Assembly: GCF_030013205.1 (NCBI RefSeq)
Contig: NZ_CP122648.1
Direction: 5' to 3' (one strand)
From: Escherichia coli
GTDB lineage: Bacteria > Pseudomonadota > Gammaproteobacteria > Enterobacterales > Enterobacteriaceae
DNA: 64,000 bases
In this document: piece by piece, positions 17,763-26,748 of the stretch
Layout: every line of letters starts with the position of its first letter
Numbering within the stretch: position 1 is the stretch's first letter
Position numbers and translations under genes: made by a program
Notes under the pieces: generated by a model
The model's input: only the letters and a program-made list of their open reading frames with translations
The model's database searches: none
Told to the model about the DNA's origin: nothing

Positions 17763-17948
17763 CGAAGTTAACCAGATTCTCTCCCCGGTGGTATTGTATA
17801 ACCCCGGGGAATTTGTTTACAGTTACAAGTAGACAATATCCACTAATTTTGTAAGTATTTAACCTATGTCATAACGTGTAATCTCTTGCCGCAACACAAG
17901 ACCTCAATATATTCAAATTTTATCTTTATTCCGATATTCAGAGACACA

Positions 17949-19433
17949 ATGCGAAAAATAATTACTCATTTCAAAGTTGTTTTAACGTTACTTCTACCAG
18001 TAACCGTATCTGCCCAGCAGATACAGTGGCAATCCTGTATGGCCAGTCAATTCAACCACTGGTTTGGTGAGGAAAAACCGTCTCCTGACTTACTATGTGG
18101 TTATTTGTCTGTTCCATTAAAATATACAGACACAGGCGGAGATGCTTCTTATGAAAAAAAATCACAAGTCAAACTAGCGTTGACAAAATTGCCGGCAAAA
18201 AGCAAGCATAAAGGAAGTATCCTGATAATAAGTGGTGGTCCCGGGTTACCAGGCATAAATCCTTATATTAACTTTGACTGGCCAGTCACAAATCTTCGTG
18301 AGTCATGGGATATTATTGGATTTGATCCTCGAGGCGTCGGACAGTCCACTCCGACAATAAACTGCCGGCAATCAGATACAGAGACTCAGGAAAACATAAC
18401 CGAAAAGCAACAAGTATTAAATAAAATTAATGCCTGTATCCATAATACCGGAGCCGAAGTCATTCGCCATATCGGCTCTAACGAGGCTGTGTACGATATT
18501 GATCGTATTAGGCAAGCCTTGGGGGATAAACAACTGACAGCCGTGGCGTATTCGTATGGAACTCAAATTGCAGCCTTATATGCAGAACGTTTTCCCTACA
18601 ACGTAAGATCTATCGTTCTTGATGGAGTCGTCGATATCGATGACCTGGAGGACAACTTCACATGGCAACTCAAACAGGCACAGAGTTATCAGGAAACGTT
18701 TGATCGCTTTGCATCCTGGTGTGCGCGTACAAAAAGTTGCCCGCTTTCTTCAGACAGAGATAAGGCAATAACTCAGTTCCATGAGCTATTATCAAAATTA
18801 CATCACAAACCTTTATTAGACAGTAAGGGAGAAAATATATCTTCAGATGAACTCATATCATTAACAACAGACCTTCTGCTATGGCGTTCATCATGGCCAA
18901 CCCTTGCAACTGCCATACGCCAGTTCTCTCAGGGGATTGTCAGTAATGAAATTGAAACTGCGCTCAGTGCTCCGATAGCCTCAGAAGAGTCAAGCGATGC
19001 TTCGGGGGTAATCCTCTGTGTAGATCAGGGGGATGAGCAATTAACACCAGAAGAGCGAAAATCCCGAAAAGACGCTCTTGCGAATGCCTTCCCGGCTATT
19101 AACTTTGACAATGGACGTTCCGATTCACCTGATTTTTGTGAATTATGGCCAATACATAGCGACCTGAACAAAACTCGCCTGAAAAATATTGTTCTGCCCT
19201 CTGGTTTACTGTTTGTAGCACACAAATACGACCCAACAACGCCCTGGATTAATGCCCGTAAGATGGCAGAGAAATTTTCCAGCCCGTTACTAACAATAAA
19301 TGGTGATGGGCATACATTAGCTCTCACCGGAGTTAATTTATGTGTAGATAAAGCAGTTGTACATCACCTGATCACTCCACAAAAAATAGAAAATATATAC
19401 TGCCCAGGAAATTCTGAAGCAGAAATACAATAA
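17949..19433 (+). CDS. Secreted alpha/beta-hydrolase, S33/TAP-like peptidase family (putative)
   Basis: ATG at 17949 gives MRKIITHFKVVLTLLLPVTVSAQQ (signal peptide); nucleophile elbow VAYSYGTQ; size (~494 aa) and layout resemble proline iminopeptidase / tripeptidyl aminopeptidase-type hydrolases. Confidence 0.6.
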   Translation: MRKIITHFKVVLTLLLPVTVSAQQIQWQSCMASQFNHWFGEEKPSPDLLCGYLSVPLKYTDTGGDASYEKKSQVKLALTKLPAKSKHKGSILIISGGPGLPGINPYINFDWPVTNLRESWDIIGFDPRGVGQSTPTINCRQSDTETQENITEKQQVLNKINACIHNTGAEVIRHIGSNEAVYDIDRIRQALGDKQLTAVAYSYGTQIAALYAERFPYNVRSIVLDGVVDIDDLEDNFTWQLKQAQSYQETFDRFASWCARTKSCPLSSDRDKAITQFHELLSKLHHKPLLDSKGENISSDELISLTTDLLLWRSSWPTLATAIRQFSQGIVSNEIETALSAPIASEESSDASGVILCVDQGDEQLTPEERKSRKDALANAFPAINFDNGRSDSPDFCELWPIHSDLNKTRLKNIVLPSGLLFVAHKYDPTTPWINARKMAEKFSSPLLTINGDGHTLALTGVNLCVDKAVVHHLITPQKIENIYCPGNSEAEIQ

Positions 19434-19455
19434 TTTCAAAATATTCCGCTATTTG

Positions 19456-19495
19456 CTCCCAATGCAAAACATATATTGCATTGGGAGCATATTCA
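19456..19495 (+). terminator. Rho-independent terminator after the hydrolase gene
   Basis: Perfect 12-bp inverted repeat ctcccaatgcaa/ttgcattgggag with 9-nt loop, followed by a T-rich run. Confidence 0.7.
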
Positions 19496-19616
19496 TATTT
19501 TTGTTATTCTTGTATGAAATCGTCTCATGTACACGGTCCTTTTTTCGCCGAAAACTGATATTACTTTAATCAAAAGTTGACGTGCCAGATTCGAAGTAAA
19601 TTTATAAAATATCAAA

Positions 19617-19922
19617 TCAATATACATTTTGCACCTTCGAGATAGTAATGAATGTTACTGTAACATGAGTTACAAACAGCTTCATACCCAGAGCTACTGA
19701 TGTATCAACACGATTCAACAATACCCGATATTTATTCCATGCCTCCAGCAACGATCTTTCTTCCTCCGTTGCGATTTCCAGATCTACAGCATCCTGCAGT
19801 GGCGCAATATACTCACTGAATTCCTGGATGTAGAACTGTGTGGTGACGGTCTTCCAGCCATTCGGCTCCTGCTGTATCGAAGCATACCAGGCTATTTCAA
19901 TATCGCTATGCTGCGGCAGCAT
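19617..19922 (-). CDS. Hypothetical phage protein sharing a ~37-aa segment with the gene remnant at 20700-20867
   Basis: 101-aa ORF; the central segment [34 protein letters not shown] is encoded by one copy of the ~120-bp direct repeat. Confidence 0.4.
19699..19818. repeat. Direct repeat copy A (~120 bp, ~88% identical to copy B)
   Basis: Hand alignment to 20748-20867. Confidence 0.8.
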
Positions 19923-19978: not shown

Positions 19979-20647
19979 ATGGTGAAATTAATGAAAAAAA
20001 ACACAGATGATGGGGCTAAAATTTACACACCACTTACCCTAAAGCTTTATGACTGGTGGGTTTTGGGAGTATCAAATCGGCTTGCATGGGGATGTACTAC
20101 AAAGGAACACCTTCTTCCACACTTTCTGGAACATTTAGGTAACAACCATCTGGATATTGGTGTTGGAACTGGGTTTTACCTTACTCACGTACCTGAGAGT
20201 AGTCTGATATCTTTAATGGATTTGAACGAAGCTAGCCTGAACGCGGCATCTACAAGGGCTGGGGAATCAAAAATTAAACATAAAATTAGCCATGATGTTT
20301 TTGAACCTTATCCCGCGGCGTTACATGGTCAATTTGATTCCATTTCCATGTTTTACCTTCTTCACTGCCTGCCTGGAAATATATCTACAAAAAGCTGTGT
20401 AATACGCAATGCGGCGCAGGCCTTAACTGACGATGGAACTCTATACGGAGCCACAATTCTTGGCGATGGAGTTGTGCACAATAGCTTCGGTCAAAAACTG
20501 ATGCGCATTTACAATCAGAAAGGCATCTTTTCAAACACAAAAGATTCCGAAGAAGGCTTAACACATATACTCTCAGAGCATTTCGAGAATGTTAAAACCA
20601 AGGTTCAAGGTACTGTAGTAATGTTTTCCGCTTCAGGGAAAAAATAG
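19979..20647 (+). CDS. Class I SAM-dependent methyltransferase (putative)
   Basis: 222-aa ORF with Rossmann motif I (LDIGVGTGFY); sits between the two direct repeats, opposite in orientation to neighbouring phage genes. Confidence 0.65.
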   Translation: MVKLMKKNTDDGAKIYTPLTLKLYDWWVLGVSNRLAWGCTTKEHLLPHFLEHLGNNHLDIGVGTGFYLTHVPESSLISLMDLNEASLNAASTRAGESKIKHKISHDVFEPYPAALHGQFDSISMFYLLHCLPGNISTKSCVIRNAAQALTDDGTLYGATILGDGVVHNSFGQKLMRIYNQKGIFSNTKDSEEGLTHILSEHFENVKTKVQGTVVMFSASGKK

Positions 20648-20654
20648 CATCCAA

Positions 20655-20687
20655 CCGCAGCACGTTCTTGCTTAAGACGTGCTGCGG
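20655..20687. terminator. Hairpin (11-bp perfect stem) between the methyltransferase gene and the gene remnant; likely bidirectional terminator
   Basis: ccgcagcacgt / acgtgctgcgg with 11-nt loop; T-run follows on the minus strand. Confidence 0.5.
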
Positions 20688-20747
20688 CATAATCCCAATG
20701 ATTACTCCCTGACAGGGTTCGTAGGCCACTCAATATCAGGTGCAGTT

Positions 20748-20867
20748 GATGTATCAACACGGTTCAGCAACACCCGATACTTTTTCCAGGCTTCCAGCAA
20801 TGAGGTTTCTTCCTCCGTTGCGATTTCCAGATCCACAGCATCCTGAAGTGGCGCAATATGCTCACTG
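20748..20867. repeat. Direct repeat copy B (~120 bp)
   Basis: Hand alignment to 19699-19818. Confidence 0.8.
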
Positions 20868-21104
20868 GCTACCCTGGCGACGCGCCTTACGCGTTAACCA
20901 GCCTTCTGCTTCCAGCCGTGCGATAGCCGTTCTGACGGTACTCATCCCCGCGCCAATCTGGCGTGCAATGGTTTCAATTGATGGCCAGCACACACCTTCG
21001 TCATTACTGAAATCAGCCAGGCGGGCCATAATTGCCACGCTGGATAACTTCATGCCTGACGCAGCGCAACCATCCCATACATAGCCGGTTAATTTAGTGC
21101 TCAT
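20862..21104 (-). pseudogene. Phage HTH protein (replication-initiator-like N-terminus), truncated / frameshifted
   Basis: 80-aa ORF with HTH (SIETIARQIGAGMSTVRTAIARLE); the homologous continuation ([20 protein letters not shown]...) is in another frame immediately downstream. Confidence 0.5.
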
Positions 21105-21113
21105 GACCGACCT

Positions 21114-21452
21114 CTATTTCCCTGAATTTACGACGAAACTGTTCGAGCGGGCTGAAGCACTCATGCTCATAGCCTTCGCGGAGGTAGATAACCCGTTGTG
21201 TTTCCGGCTCCCAACGAATGACTCTGACGGGTACTCCGTAGTGATCTTTGAACCAGCGGTTAACTTGTCGCAAAGGACTGTCTCCTTCTGCCGGTTGAAA
21301 TCACCCACAGCCCACTCTGCAAAGCTGTGGGTTACAATTTCCCTGTCACCTGGTACATTCACTGCATAGCAATATTCCACCTTCGCTTTTCCACCCGGTA
21401 CAGGAAGCGCAATCAGTTGCGAGCGACGGTAGTGTGTTGTTAAACTGTTCAT
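21114..21452 (-). CDS. Hypothetical phage protein
   Basis: 112-aa ORF; ATGA overlap with the upstream CII-like gene suggests translational coupling. Confidence 0.4.
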
Positions 21453-22018
21453 GCGTTAGTTTCTCCACAACCAGAAGCAATCGACGCCACGACGCCCGGA
21501 GCTGCACACTCGCGGGCGTCATTACTTTCTGAAATGCAAAAAATTTTGTAGACAAGTGCTGCATGCTCCTGCAGCTTCGAAATTGAGAGATACAGCTCGT
21601 CGTTAATTGCTGTCTTCTCATGCGGTTCCACTACACCGTCTTCGATTGCTGAACGAATCTGTTTTGAATAACTGCCGATCTGTTCAATGACTTCCAGCAG
21701 ACGCTGGTTAATATCGGCGTTGTCCACATCCTCGACGTCAGGAAGAGACACAAAGACGCCATTTGCAGACTGCGCCACAGCATCAGCAATGAAGTGAGTG
21801 CCACCAGCACGCTGTAAAACCATTGCCCATCCCAGCGGGAAAATCTGATCGCCATCTGCACGAAGGCGGTTGAATAAAGCGTTTTCTGTTACATCGAGCC
21901 AGTCAGCCGCTTCAGCGTAACCACCCGGCAACGCCGCGATAGTTTTTCTGACAGCTTTCACGTACCACTCAGGCTGTTTTTCTATTTTCCAGTGATGCTT
22001 ACCCACGATTAGCCTCAT
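21449..22018 (-). CDS. Phage CII-like / YdaT-family regulatory protein (putative)
   Basis: 189-aa ORF directly downstream of the cro-like gene in the rightward early operon; assignment by position and general resemblance. Confidence 0.45.
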
Positions 22019-22049
22019 CGTTCTGTGGTTAAAAATTGAAAGTGTTCTG

Positions 22050-22274
22050 CTAATCTTTCGGATAGATATCCGGTCTTAAGTCAGATTTCGTAATTGCACC
22101 TGACGTGCATTGCTCAAGTTTTTTAGCCAGCACAAAACTGGCTTTTTTATAGCCATTGAAAACCAGCCGTAAGTAGCCAGGTGTTGAGCCAACTTTTCCG
22201 GCCAACTCGCCCTGCTGTTCTTTGGTTAAAGAGTCCCAATACGCTTTCATACAATATGTACCTCCGATGTACAT
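22050..22274 (-). CDS. Cro-like / YdaS-family HTH regulator
   Basis: Small ORF divergent from the cI-like repressor; likely true start at MKAYWDSL (22250); HTH-like GSTPGYLRLVFNG segment. Confidence 0.6.
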   Translation of the reverse strand: MYIGGTYCMKAYWDSLTKEQQGELAGKVGSTPGYLRLVFNGYKKASFVLAKKLEQCTSGAITKSDLRPDIYPKD

Positions 22275-22325
22275 ATCACATGATTAAAATGAACCTTCAA
22301 GATACTTGTACCTTAACGGTACAAG
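22258..22325. promoter_or_regulatory. Divergent cI/cro control region with palindromic operator-like sites
   Basis: Perfect palindrome cttgtacc-ttaac-ggtacaag (22305-22325) and tgtacc...gtaca (22258-22274) between the divergent repressor genes. Confidence 0.6.
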
Positions 22326-22340
22326 GGTTTTAATTTCGTT

Positions 22341-23015
22341 ATGAAAACAATCCATGACATCCGGCGGTCTAACGCCAGAAAACTGAGAGATGGTGTTGGC
22401 GGGAATTCTTCCTTTGCCACTATGATTGATCGCGAGCCAACCCAGACCAGCAGGTTTATGGGAGATGGTGCTACTAAAAATATCGGTGACAGCATGGCAC
22501 GACACATCGAAAAATGTTTCGACCTGCCTGTCGGATGGCTCGATCAAGAACACCAGACAACGAACATCACAAAAAAACCTGATGTTTCAATCACTAATAA
22601 ACAAATCACATTAGTCCCTGTCATATCATGGGTACAGGCCGGAGCATGGAAAGAAGTTGGATATTCTGAGGTTGATTTGAGCACAGCAGAAACGTATCCC
22701 TGCCCTGTACCCTGTGGGGAAATGACTTATATCCTGCGGGTGATAGGTGATTCAATGATTGATGAGTACCGCCCGGGAGACATGATTTTTGTCGATCCTG
22801 AAGTACCTGCCTGCCACGGTGACGACGTTATTGCATTGATGCACGATACAGGTGAAACCACCTTCAAAAGGTTGATAGAAGATGGGACACAGCGTTATCT
22901 CAAAGCGTTAAACCCAAACTGGCCTGAGCCTTACATTAAGATCAACGGTAATTGCTCTATAATTGGAACTGTGATTTTCTCAGGAAAACCAAGAAGATAC
23001 AAAATCAAAGCCTAA
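22341..23015 (+). CDS. CI-like phage repressor with LexA/S24 autopeptidase domain
   Basis: 224-aa ORF; N-terminal HTH region and C-terminal S24 domain (GDSM..., TFKRL). Confidence 0.8.
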   Translation: MKTIHDIRRSNARKLRDGVGGNSSFATMIDREPTQTSRFMGDGATKNIGDSMARHIEKCFDLPVGWLDQEHQTTNITKKPDVSITNKQITLVPVISWVQAGAWKEVGYSEVDLSTAETYPCPVPCGEMTYILRVIGDSMIDEYRPGDMIFVDPEVPACHGDDVIALMHDTGETTFKRLIEDGTQRYLKALNPNWPEPYIKINGNCSIIGTVIFSGKPRRYKIKA

Positions 23016-25594: not shown

Positions 25595-26656
25595 ATGTCA
25601 TTTATTAAAACTTTTTCCGGGAAGCATTTTTATTATGACAAGATAAATAAAGACGACATCGATATTAACGATATCGCGGTTTCCCTTTCAAATATCTGTC
25701 GCTTTGCCGGTCATCTTTCGCACTTCTACAGCGTCGCCCAACATGCGGTTCTTTGCAGCCAGCTGGTGCCGCAGGAATTTGCTTTTGAAGCGTTAATGCA
25801 TGATGCAACAGAAGCGTATTGCCAGGACATTCCCGCACCACTGAAACGCCTTCTTCCTGACTATAAACGGATGGAAGAAAAAATAGACGCCGTAATCCGT
25901 GAGAAATACGGGTTATCAACTCAGACAAAGGCAAAGCATCTTGCCATGATAAAGGCCATTCTCCGTGCTGCAGAACGCGACTGGAAGTGGCTGGAAAAAG
26001 CGCCTGTCATCAAGATACCAGCGGTCAGAAACAAGCGAGTCAGATGGCTGGAAAAGGAGGAAGCAAAACGCCTTATTGATGAGTGCCCCGAACCACTGAA
26101 ATCTGTCGTCAAGTTTGCGCTGGCAACTGGTCTGAGAAAGTCGAACATCATAAATCTGGAATGGCAACAAATCGACATGCAGCGACGAGTTGCCTGGGTG
26201 AATCCAGAAGAGAGCAAATCAAACCGCGCCATTGGTGTGGCGCTGAACGATACCGCCTGTAAAGTGTTGCGTGATCAAATAGGCAAGCATCACAAATGGG
26301 TGTTTGTACATACCAAGGCGGCTAAGCGAGCAGATGGAACATCAACGCCTGCGGTCAGGAAGATGCGCATCGACAGCAAGACATCATGGCTATCAGCTTG
26401 TCGTCGTGCAGGAATTGAAGATTTCCGTTTCCATGACCTCAGACACACCTGGGCAAGCTGGCTGATCCAGTCAGGCGTCCCATTATCTGTGCTTCAGGAA
26501 ATGGGCGGATGGGAGTCCATAGAAATGGTTCGTAGGTATGCTCACCTTGCGCCTAATCATTTGACAGAGCATGCAAGGAAAATAGACGACATTTTTGGTG
26601 ATAATGTCCCAAATATGTCCCACTGTGGAATTATGGAGGATATAAAGAAGGCGTAA
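25595..26656 (+). CDS. Chimeric ORF: YfdR-like HD-domain N-terminus fused in frame to a tyrosine-integrase catalytic domain (likely inactive integrase remnant)
   Basis: N-terminal ~105 aa [14 protein letters not shown]...[10 protein letters not shown] (HD motif); C-terminal ~240 aa with integrase signature [11 protein letters not shown]...VRRYAHL, ending 16 nt from the tRNA 3' end; the integrase arm/core-binding N-terminus is absent. Confidence 0.7.
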
Positions 26657-26671
26657 CTGATTGAATTGTAA

Positions 26672-26748
26672 TGGCGCGCCCTGCAGGATTCGAACCTGCG
26701 GCCCACGACTTAGAAGGTCGTTGCTCTATCCAACTGAGCTAAGGGCGC
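26672..26748 (-). tRNA. argU: tRNA-Arg (anticodon UCU)
   Basis: 77-nt sequence whose reverse complement is GCGCCCTTAGCTCAGTTGGATAGAGCAACGACCTTCTAAGTCGTGGGCCGCAGGTTCGAATCCTGCAGGGCGCGCCA; cloverleaf and UCU anticodon readable by eye. Confidence 0.93.

Follow-up and report, generated by a model that had tools for sequence, protein, structure and literature searches.

The decay of cryptic prophages is thought to proceed by random deletion followed by selection, and the closest described counterparts of the locus analysed here are found in three prophage remnants of Escherichia coli K-12. In e14, the protein YmfN (oweE::aaaE, a 'chimeric replication protein/phage terminase') joins the N-terminal part of an O-like replication gene, in-frame, to the terminase large subunit, giving a product of 455 aa; the fusion arose when a large internal segment was deleted, 10.7 kb by comparison with an intact prophage of O157. 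In CPS-53 (KpLE1), YfdO (oweS) derives from the same O-like gene, broken with a TA microhomology at nt 234-235; there the opposite side of the gene is kept (nt 234-942), and it is the immunity region (3.3 kb), not the late genes, that has been lost. The right end of DLP12 (aaaD'-tfaD-ybcY'-tfaX-appY) carries a large deletion that ends inside the tail-fibre assembly gene tfa, with a terminase gene as its left partner, TAT common to both parents at the junction, and 21.7 kb missing. A further system of potential relevance is sequence-specific, topoisomerase-mediated illegitimate recombination, which is represented by vaccinia topoisomerase I, acting at CCCTT, and by the subunit-exchange model for gyrase.

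The present locus lies in a stretch of 64,000 nucleotides of E. coli DNA (contig NZ_CP122648.1 of assembly GCF_030013205.1), which is referred to throughout as the window. The window shares with e14 the upstream ymfK-ymfT-ymfL-ymfM region and the same O-like gene (98.6% identical in its N-terminal part), which is broken at nt 235 in the window and at nt 234 in e14; the two differ in the partner gene (tfa, out of frame, in the window), in the bases shared by the parents (GGTA, which contains TA, as opposed to GGT in e14) and in chromosomal position (argU as opposed to icd). The breakpoint coincides with the TA used in CPS-53 yfdO. With K-12 DLP12 the window shares the argU-to-ompT locus and a tfa-methyltransferase-tfa' arrangement, but it retains 57 tfa codons where DLP12 retains approximately 145, an intact methyltransferase where DLP12 has the ybcY pseudogene, and a hydrolase gene in place of appY.

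The truncated gene pair and its intact relatives

The features to which the comparison refers are as follows, in window coordinates.

19617..19829, minus strand: tfa' fragment, repeat copy A, the positional counterpart of K-12 tfaX
19979..20647, plus strand: class I SAM-dependent methyltransferase, between the two tfa fragments
20702..20873, minus strand: tfa' fragment, repeat copy B, the last 57 codons and stop of a 194-aa gene (Pfam, PHROG, PGAP)
20870..20873, minus strand: almost certainly a deletion junction, GGTA in both parental genes (three-way alignment, 4-nt HSP overlap)
20862..21104, minus strand: O' fragment, codons 1-78 of an O-like initiator, two out-of-frame codons (S, Q) and TGA (Pfam, PHROG, alignment, PGAP)
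21094..23015: kept e14-type early/immunity region, upstream of O' (Pfam, PGAP names)
25914..25915: second deletion scar of the same prophage remnant, TA common to both parents
26672..26748, minus strand: tRNA-Arg(tct), argU, the attachment site that marks the DLP12 locus

The ORF listing gives an ATG-initiated frame of 80 aa that ends at a TGA (20864-20862), has a winged-helix DNA-binding domain at its N-terminus, as seen in a Pfam HTH_36 match (E 3e-12), and aligns with PHROG 391, 'replication initiation O-like', over profile positions 1-78 of 298 (E 4e-32). An intact homologue of 313 aa aligns with the same profile from end to end (positions 1-298, E 1e-134), and the window's ORF, stopping after 80 codons, is without the linker and C-terminal domain of a full-length O-like initiator of approximately 300 aa. 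Over nucleotides 1-235 the ORF matches the intact 942-nt O gene (L004 7755-8696) with 100% identity, and the similarity is gone from nt 235-238 onward; after G78, intact homologues continue with NRNASNVYQLNV..., not with SEHIAPLQ. The intact form is common (at least 80% of the O gene is covered in 1,577 genomes, and 1,598 contain an unbroken match to a 180-nt probe that spans the breakpoint), and therefore the natural protein is one of approximately 313 aa.

The first-pass annotation had placed the end of this ORF exactly where repeat copy B begins, and had described a homologous continuation, ending in ...VRE, that runs on in a different frame to about 20700. Both positions are borne out: a repeat search places copy B at 20747-20867, 89% identical to direct-repeat copy A at 19698-19818, and the peptide is encoded from 20866 down to a stop at 20704-20702, one base out of frame with the HTH ORF. 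The homology is another matter, since the downstream piece matches Pfam PF02413 (Caudo_TAP; profile positions 81-130 of 131, E 2e-25) and the tail-fibre assembly family PHROG 105 (positions 150-203 of 239), and is related to repeat copy A, itself a tfa fragment, and not to the HTH gene. With codon 138 of 194 as its first, this tfa' fragment lacks a start codon, and it is preceded by the O' fragment in place of a tail-fibre gene; it is the positional counterpart of K-12 tfaD and is identical to L004 40065-40236.

Full-length genes elsewhere match each of the two pieces at more than 98% identity, so that the pattern is not one of chance. PGAP lists the first as an incomplete pseudogene ('helix-turn-helix domain-containing protein, missing C-terminus', window 20865-21104) and the second as a partial pseudogene ('tail fiber assembly protein, missing N-terminus', window 20702-20875). 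The truncated pair is, in other words, already known to standard annotation as two pseudogenes, and is an ordinary deletion scar; the O' and tfa' pieces are dead fragments, and no frameshifting is involved.

An intact relative is provided by YZ3E2001, in which a 41-kb prophage occupies the same argU site with a complete set of phage genes between O and tfa; its order is early region, full O-like gene, nin, lysis, head, tail, 194-aa tfa, methyltransferase, tfa fragment, appY and ompT. The points that correspond to O nt 235 and to the start of the tfa' fragment are 32,079 bp apart in that prophage. In a three-way alignment the window's identity to O ends at 20870 and its identity to tfa begins at 20873, such that GGTA (20873-20870), with TA at 20871-20870, is present in both parents. 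Across the joint O is read as GGT-AGC-CAG-TGA and tfa as GTA-GCC-AGT-GAG; the two genes are thus joined out of frame, and the O frame ends after two foreign codons to give the 80-aa ORF. As in e14 ymfN, the type example of a chimeric prophage pseudogene formed by internal deletion, the flanks correspond to two distant genes of an intact relative, with order and orientation kept and few shared bases at the joint.

We are accordingly close to certain that what is seen at 20702-21104 was left by the loss of a large internal segment from a lambdoid prophage inserted at argU (the DLP12 locus). The ancestral prophage would have resembled the 41-kb prophage of YZ3E2001, with an e14-type immunity region and a 313-aa O-like initiator, and approximately 32.08 kb would have been lost between O nt 235 and tfa codon 138, the ends being joined within the common GGTA. 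Such a deletion would have removed the origin, the remainder of the initiator, all of the nin, lysis, head and tail genes, and tfa up to codon 138, and a second deletion, of 1.5 kb, would have taken the N-terminus of the integrase. The ancestor is reconstructed from another strain, and the history may instead have consisted of several nested deletions that extended from the same left end. In the intact O gene, 75 nt downstream of the main breakpoint, 4.3 tandem copies of a 15-bp unit, TCTGACCCGTCAAAA (nt 310-373, L004 8064-8127), encode a repetitive DPSKS linker and are presumably the origin iterons; the array was sought in the window and is absent from it.

The distribution of the junction is narrow. 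Of 5,426 complete E. coli genomes, exactly 17, all of them swine isolates, contain a junction-spanning 140-mer in full, and the others match one half of it only; the surrounding 3.7 kb is 99.9-100% identical in 17 complete genomes (all swine, ETEC or O139:H1), and the exact 80-aa product occurs on 26 contigs. The complete genomes with truncated O copies are mostly those of K-12 laboratory strains.

Three other accounts of the junction can be weighed against this evidence. One of the two alternatives in the first-pass annotation was a frameshift needed for a product of approximately 135 aa; such a frameshift could be a programmed +1 ribosomal one or one introduced in sequencing, and the abutting frames do add up to a functional protein of that length (78 + 57 codons). 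Yet one half comes from an O-like initiator and the other from a tail-fibre assembly protein, which are unrelated and whose genes are 32 kb apart in the intact prophage, and intact O homologues run on for another 235 aa of different sequence. Reading of the frame junction, CGCCAGGGTAGCCAGTGAGC, reveals no X-XXY-YYZ slippery heptamer and no +1 shift motif, nor is a stimulatory element visible at CGC-CAG-GGT-AGC-CAG-TGA, and the restriction of the junction to 17 of 5,426 genomes, of one host type and one swine lineage, leaves no evolutionary depth for a programmed signal; the probability of such a product is negligible. An error of assembly or sequencing at 20840-20880 has only the abrupt change of frame in its favour and is equally improbable, given that the 140-nt junction and its 3.7-kb context recur in 17 independent assemblies from several laboratories and countries, and given the 26 contigs that carry the exact product.

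The remaining account, in which the HTH gene was cut by the insertion of a repeat-flanked methyltransferase cassette, has in its favour the direct tfa repeats that flank the methyltransferase and the start of copy B at the stop of the ORF. The tfa-methyltransferase-tfa' unit is, however, found at the far right end of intact prophages that have a full-length tfa, and also in K-12 DLP12; the window differs in that it lacks the 32 kb that separate O from tfa. The unit is ancestral, and an insertion is for that reason rejected as very unlikely. The earlier suggestion of a pseudogene created at an insertion boundary is consequently upheld as regards a pseudogene at a rearrangement boundary, and replaced as regards the insertion, the boundary being the junction of a deletion of approximately 32 kb.

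A recurrent breakpoint in the O-like gene

On the O side, the break of the window lies just after nt 235, at GGGTA/ACC (window 20870, L004 7989). A search with residues 1-78 returned 120 short proteins, 105 of which share the N-terminus; the list is a biased one, as the query stopped at G78 and no protein longer than 137 aa was returned, and several of the chimeric proteins in it may stem from one event. Within the 105, divergence from the intact protein sets in after G78 in 42 cases, after N79 in 7, after A60 in 12, after I61 in 6 and after L70 in 2. In these chimeras the codon for residue 79 or 61 begins with A, which places the DNA break right after GGGTA (nt 235), GGCTA (nt 181) or GGTTA (nt 210). 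These breakpoints (L004 7989, 7935 and 7964) are all GGNTA sites, and the five TA dinucleotides in nt 150-240 were used 49, 18, 2, 0 and 0 times, use that tracks GGNTA; at the TA dinucleotides without GG (GAGTA, GCGTA), no break was found among the 105 proteins.

On this length-biased list 49 of the 105 truncated variants break at the nt-235 site, with many different partners, and the tails beyond the point of divergence all differ. The first-pass annotation had also allowed for homologues that naturally end where the 80-aa ORF ends: none do, and the many truncated variants that end there are each a different deletion chimera. The tails correspond to phage sequence that lies beyond O and keeps the orientation of O, so that the variants are deletions with one fixed end. 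Among the tails are C-terminal ends (of RusA, DUF968 and terminase), J, lom and many out-of-frame stretches. Junctions in contig DNA from IMG/VR and metagenomes agree, and add cases in which the other side of O is kept. A pattern scan of metagenomes gave 110 loci, four of which had O context, and led to two newly mapped junctions, both at TA.

In K-12, e14 ymfN loses its O homology at this place, and CPS-53 yfdO is joined there, at the same TA, to the upstream region of yfdP. The nt-235 breakpoint is a recurrent hot spot across many lineages, including these two cryptic prophages. The DNA fold of O nt 151-280 has a z-score of -0.05, with no hairpin or other special structure at the hot spot. 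In the literature on ymfN deletions, on hot spots of illegitimate recombination in prophages, on deletions at TA dinucleotides and on recombination by type IA topoisomerases, the hot spot was not found described, which hints that it may be new.

Anatomy of the crossovers and candidate mechanisms

At 32 of 36 distinct mapped partner sites TA stands exactly at the crossover, against an expectation of 0.16 given the A (p = 4e-22). In every junction that can be resolved, the left parent supplied the base before TA and the right parent the base after it, so that the exchange is confined to TA itself. When half-sites are pooled, C, G and G are over-represented at -5, -4 and -3 from the centre of TA (26/54, 24/54 and 31/54; p = 7e-4, 0.03 and 7e-4, respectively), and the partner sites display a weak palindromic preference, CGGN-TA-NCCG. 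Several partners have been used with both O hot spots: GCGGATA/CCG in DUF968, CCGGTTA/TCC and CCGGATA/ACCGG in RusA, and CCGGGTA/ACG in terminase.

The two hot spots differ in their pairing. The nt-181 hot spot (HS2) has one good half-site only, and its partners carry a perfect CGGN-TA on the same side in five of seven cases, compared with 3.5% of the background (p = 1e-6), and on the other side in one of seven. Among partners of the nt-235 hot spot (HS1) the good half may be the left or the right one, and approximately 40% of them match the motif in neither half. Among the prophage's 1,412 TA sites, HS1 comes no higher than 44th by motif score. The sites that define the motif were also those on which it was scored, and the ranks of partner sites under the PWM, being circular, were not used as evidence.

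Junctions outside the O gene that share TA are three in number: the second scar of the window, aaaD-tfaD in K-12 DLP12, and yfdM'-tail fibre in K-12 CPS-53. Two prophage junctions have no shared TA (L013, from IMG/VR, at L004 6791/2515, and L024 at L025 3167/2520); one of these joins a recurrent site at the end of ymfT (CCGGATATCTATCC) to a non-TA partner with zero shared bases, and in the other the methyltransferase gene has been lost cleanly, from one TCAT gene boundary to the next. At the nt-235 spot itself, e14 ymfN and P0035 have GGT or GGGT, not TA, common to their parents.

From the recurrence of the GGGTA/ACC hot spot, together with TA at almost all partner crossovers, we infer deletion by a sequence-preferring cut-and-rejoin activity that exchanges strands at TA, a reading toward which we lean slightly. 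The same-side pairing at HS2 suggests that the activity reads one strand and cuts both sites on that strand, and the cuts are predicted on CCAGGGTAACCGC and AACGGCTATCGCA, next to TA on the CGGN strand. The alternative is RecA-independent, microhomology-mediated illegitimate recombination, by slippage or end joining at GGTA, in which the apparent hot spot stems from a site close to the origin that is fragile or prone to pausing, in combination with sampling and selection for the immunity region, and which calls for no sequence-specific enzyme; its probability is appreciable, although short of one half. The 4 bp at the window junction are readily explained in this manner, as are the 2-5-nt junctions without TA in the same gene (P0112, P0025, P0069 and P0103), and the GGT and GGGT of e14 and P0035 are consistent with a fixed DNA end annealing to whatever match is available. 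Bias in the protein sample points the same way, and selection for the repressor and for loss of lethal genes would place left ends just past the immunity region.

Several properties of the partner sites are difficult to reconcile with annealing. At the base that adjoins TA (-3 in this count) there is no excess of matches to the hot spot, unlike at -4, -5 and -6, a pattern that annealing does not predict, and the motif is found in both the lost and the kept halves of partner sites. The excess of same-side matches among HS2 partners and the dependence of TA use on GGNTA likewise argue against simple homology, and 2 bp is a very short homology for slippage.

Known activities were compared with these features. 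The Pin/Hin/Gin invertases, for which a 26-bp site with an AAACC-NN-GGTTT core was the criterion, are rejected: the pix sites of e14 (AAACC-TT-GGTTT) have the opposite polarity to GGN-TA-NCC and another central dinucleotide. Deletion by insertion sequences or transposons is rejected as well, as no IS is present at any junction and the bases that flank TA are unlike the targets of IS5 and IS630, which prefer YTAR and CTAG, respectively. Topoisomerase-mediated recombination resembles the O junctions in requiring little or no homology, in preferring short sequences, and in combining one strong site with looser partners. Subunit exchange by gyrase is nevertheless rejected, since its 4-bp stagger, with heteroduplex, predicts recombinants that carry the whole NTAN of one or the other parent, whereas here the left N is that of the left parent and the right N that of the right parent, with exchange at the central TA alone; a G just after the cut, favoured in gyrase sites of the quinolone type, is also not seen at the junctions. 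In the comparison with type IA topoisomerases, the same-strand pairing of half-sites is compatible with a single-strand enzyme. For cleavage at TA, E. coli Topo I requires a C 4 nt upstream, and its motif, TCNTT/A, is AT-rich (PMC9352719). If the CGGN/TA half-site is taken to be cut immediately 5' of TA, C is over-represented 4 nt ahead of that cut, while the half-site's GG (-3 and -2) and TA (+1 and +2) depart from TCNTT/A.

A wider and more tentative proposal, to which we give rather less than an even chance, is that an unrecognised, sequence-preferring breakage-rejoining activity, acting at TA preceded on one strand by (C)GGN, trims lambdoid prophages of the e14/DLP12/CPS-53 family. GGGTA/ACC (nt 235) and GGCTA/TC (nt 181) of the O gene would then be preferred sites, and the products would comprise the window's two scars, CPS-53 yfdO, CPS-53 yfdM', DLP12 tfaD and dozens of chimeras; the e14 ymfN junction, with GGT in place of TA at the same spot, may be another. 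The scar in the window carries little weight in itself, being one more truncated pair in a decayed prophage. A recurrent TA-centred breakpoint with a flanking preference would, by comparison, indicate a defined molecular activity in prophage inactivation, and, if this is true, the 'domestication' of E. coli prophages would be partly enzyme-driven and site-directed, and not a matter of random decay.

The surrounding prophage remnant

The neighbours of the truncated pair, which include ymfK, ymfT, ymfL, a truncated integrase gene and tRNA-Arg(tct), lie between fimZ and ompT, and the locus is the argU/DLP12 prophage site with an e14-type immunity region. That region comprises a DUF4222 ORF that overlaps ymfM, followed by ymfL (CII-like), ymfT (Cro-like) and, on the plus strand, ymfK (a LexA/CI-like repressor). 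At the second scar the parents read TTGATA/CTGG and GGGGGTA/ACCCG, with the crossover at the slash; approximately 1.5 kb is gone (the N-terminus of the integrase, an xis-like gene, yfdT and part of yfdR), and the truncated integrase is left adjoining argU. With the origin, the remainder of the initiator, the lysis genes and the integrase N-terminus lost, the element is unable to replicate, excise or lyse, and it retains the repressor region; this swine lineage of E. coli thus keeps only the repressor end of the phage.

A number of minor observations concern the neighbouring genes. The methyltransferase between the two tfa fragments is intact at 222 aa. A 45-aa hypothetical ORF annotated by PGAP at 20592-20729 overlaps the 3' ends of the methyltransferase gene and of the tfa' fragment. 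On the minus strand at 21114-21452, an ORF of 112 aa is identical at 110 of 113 positions to K-12 YmfM, an SOS-inducible division inhibitor; it is absent from the RefSeq annotation, in which the overlapping DUF4222 ORF (21094-21273), in another frame, is given instead. At L136 10872-11645 in the intact e14-like prophage of O157:H7 BB24-1, a gene for a LEM-3-like GIY-YIG nuclease stands beside pinE, at the position that mcrA occupies in K-12 e14, and a P4-like element adjoins it. At the right end of the remnant, window 17763-19692 consists of unrelated DNA in place of the appY segment that K-12 and YZ3E2001 carry between the tfa fragment and ompT; this DNA contains a gene for an alpha/beta hydrolase (17949-19433) and, after it, an inverted repeat of 17 nt (19451-19492).
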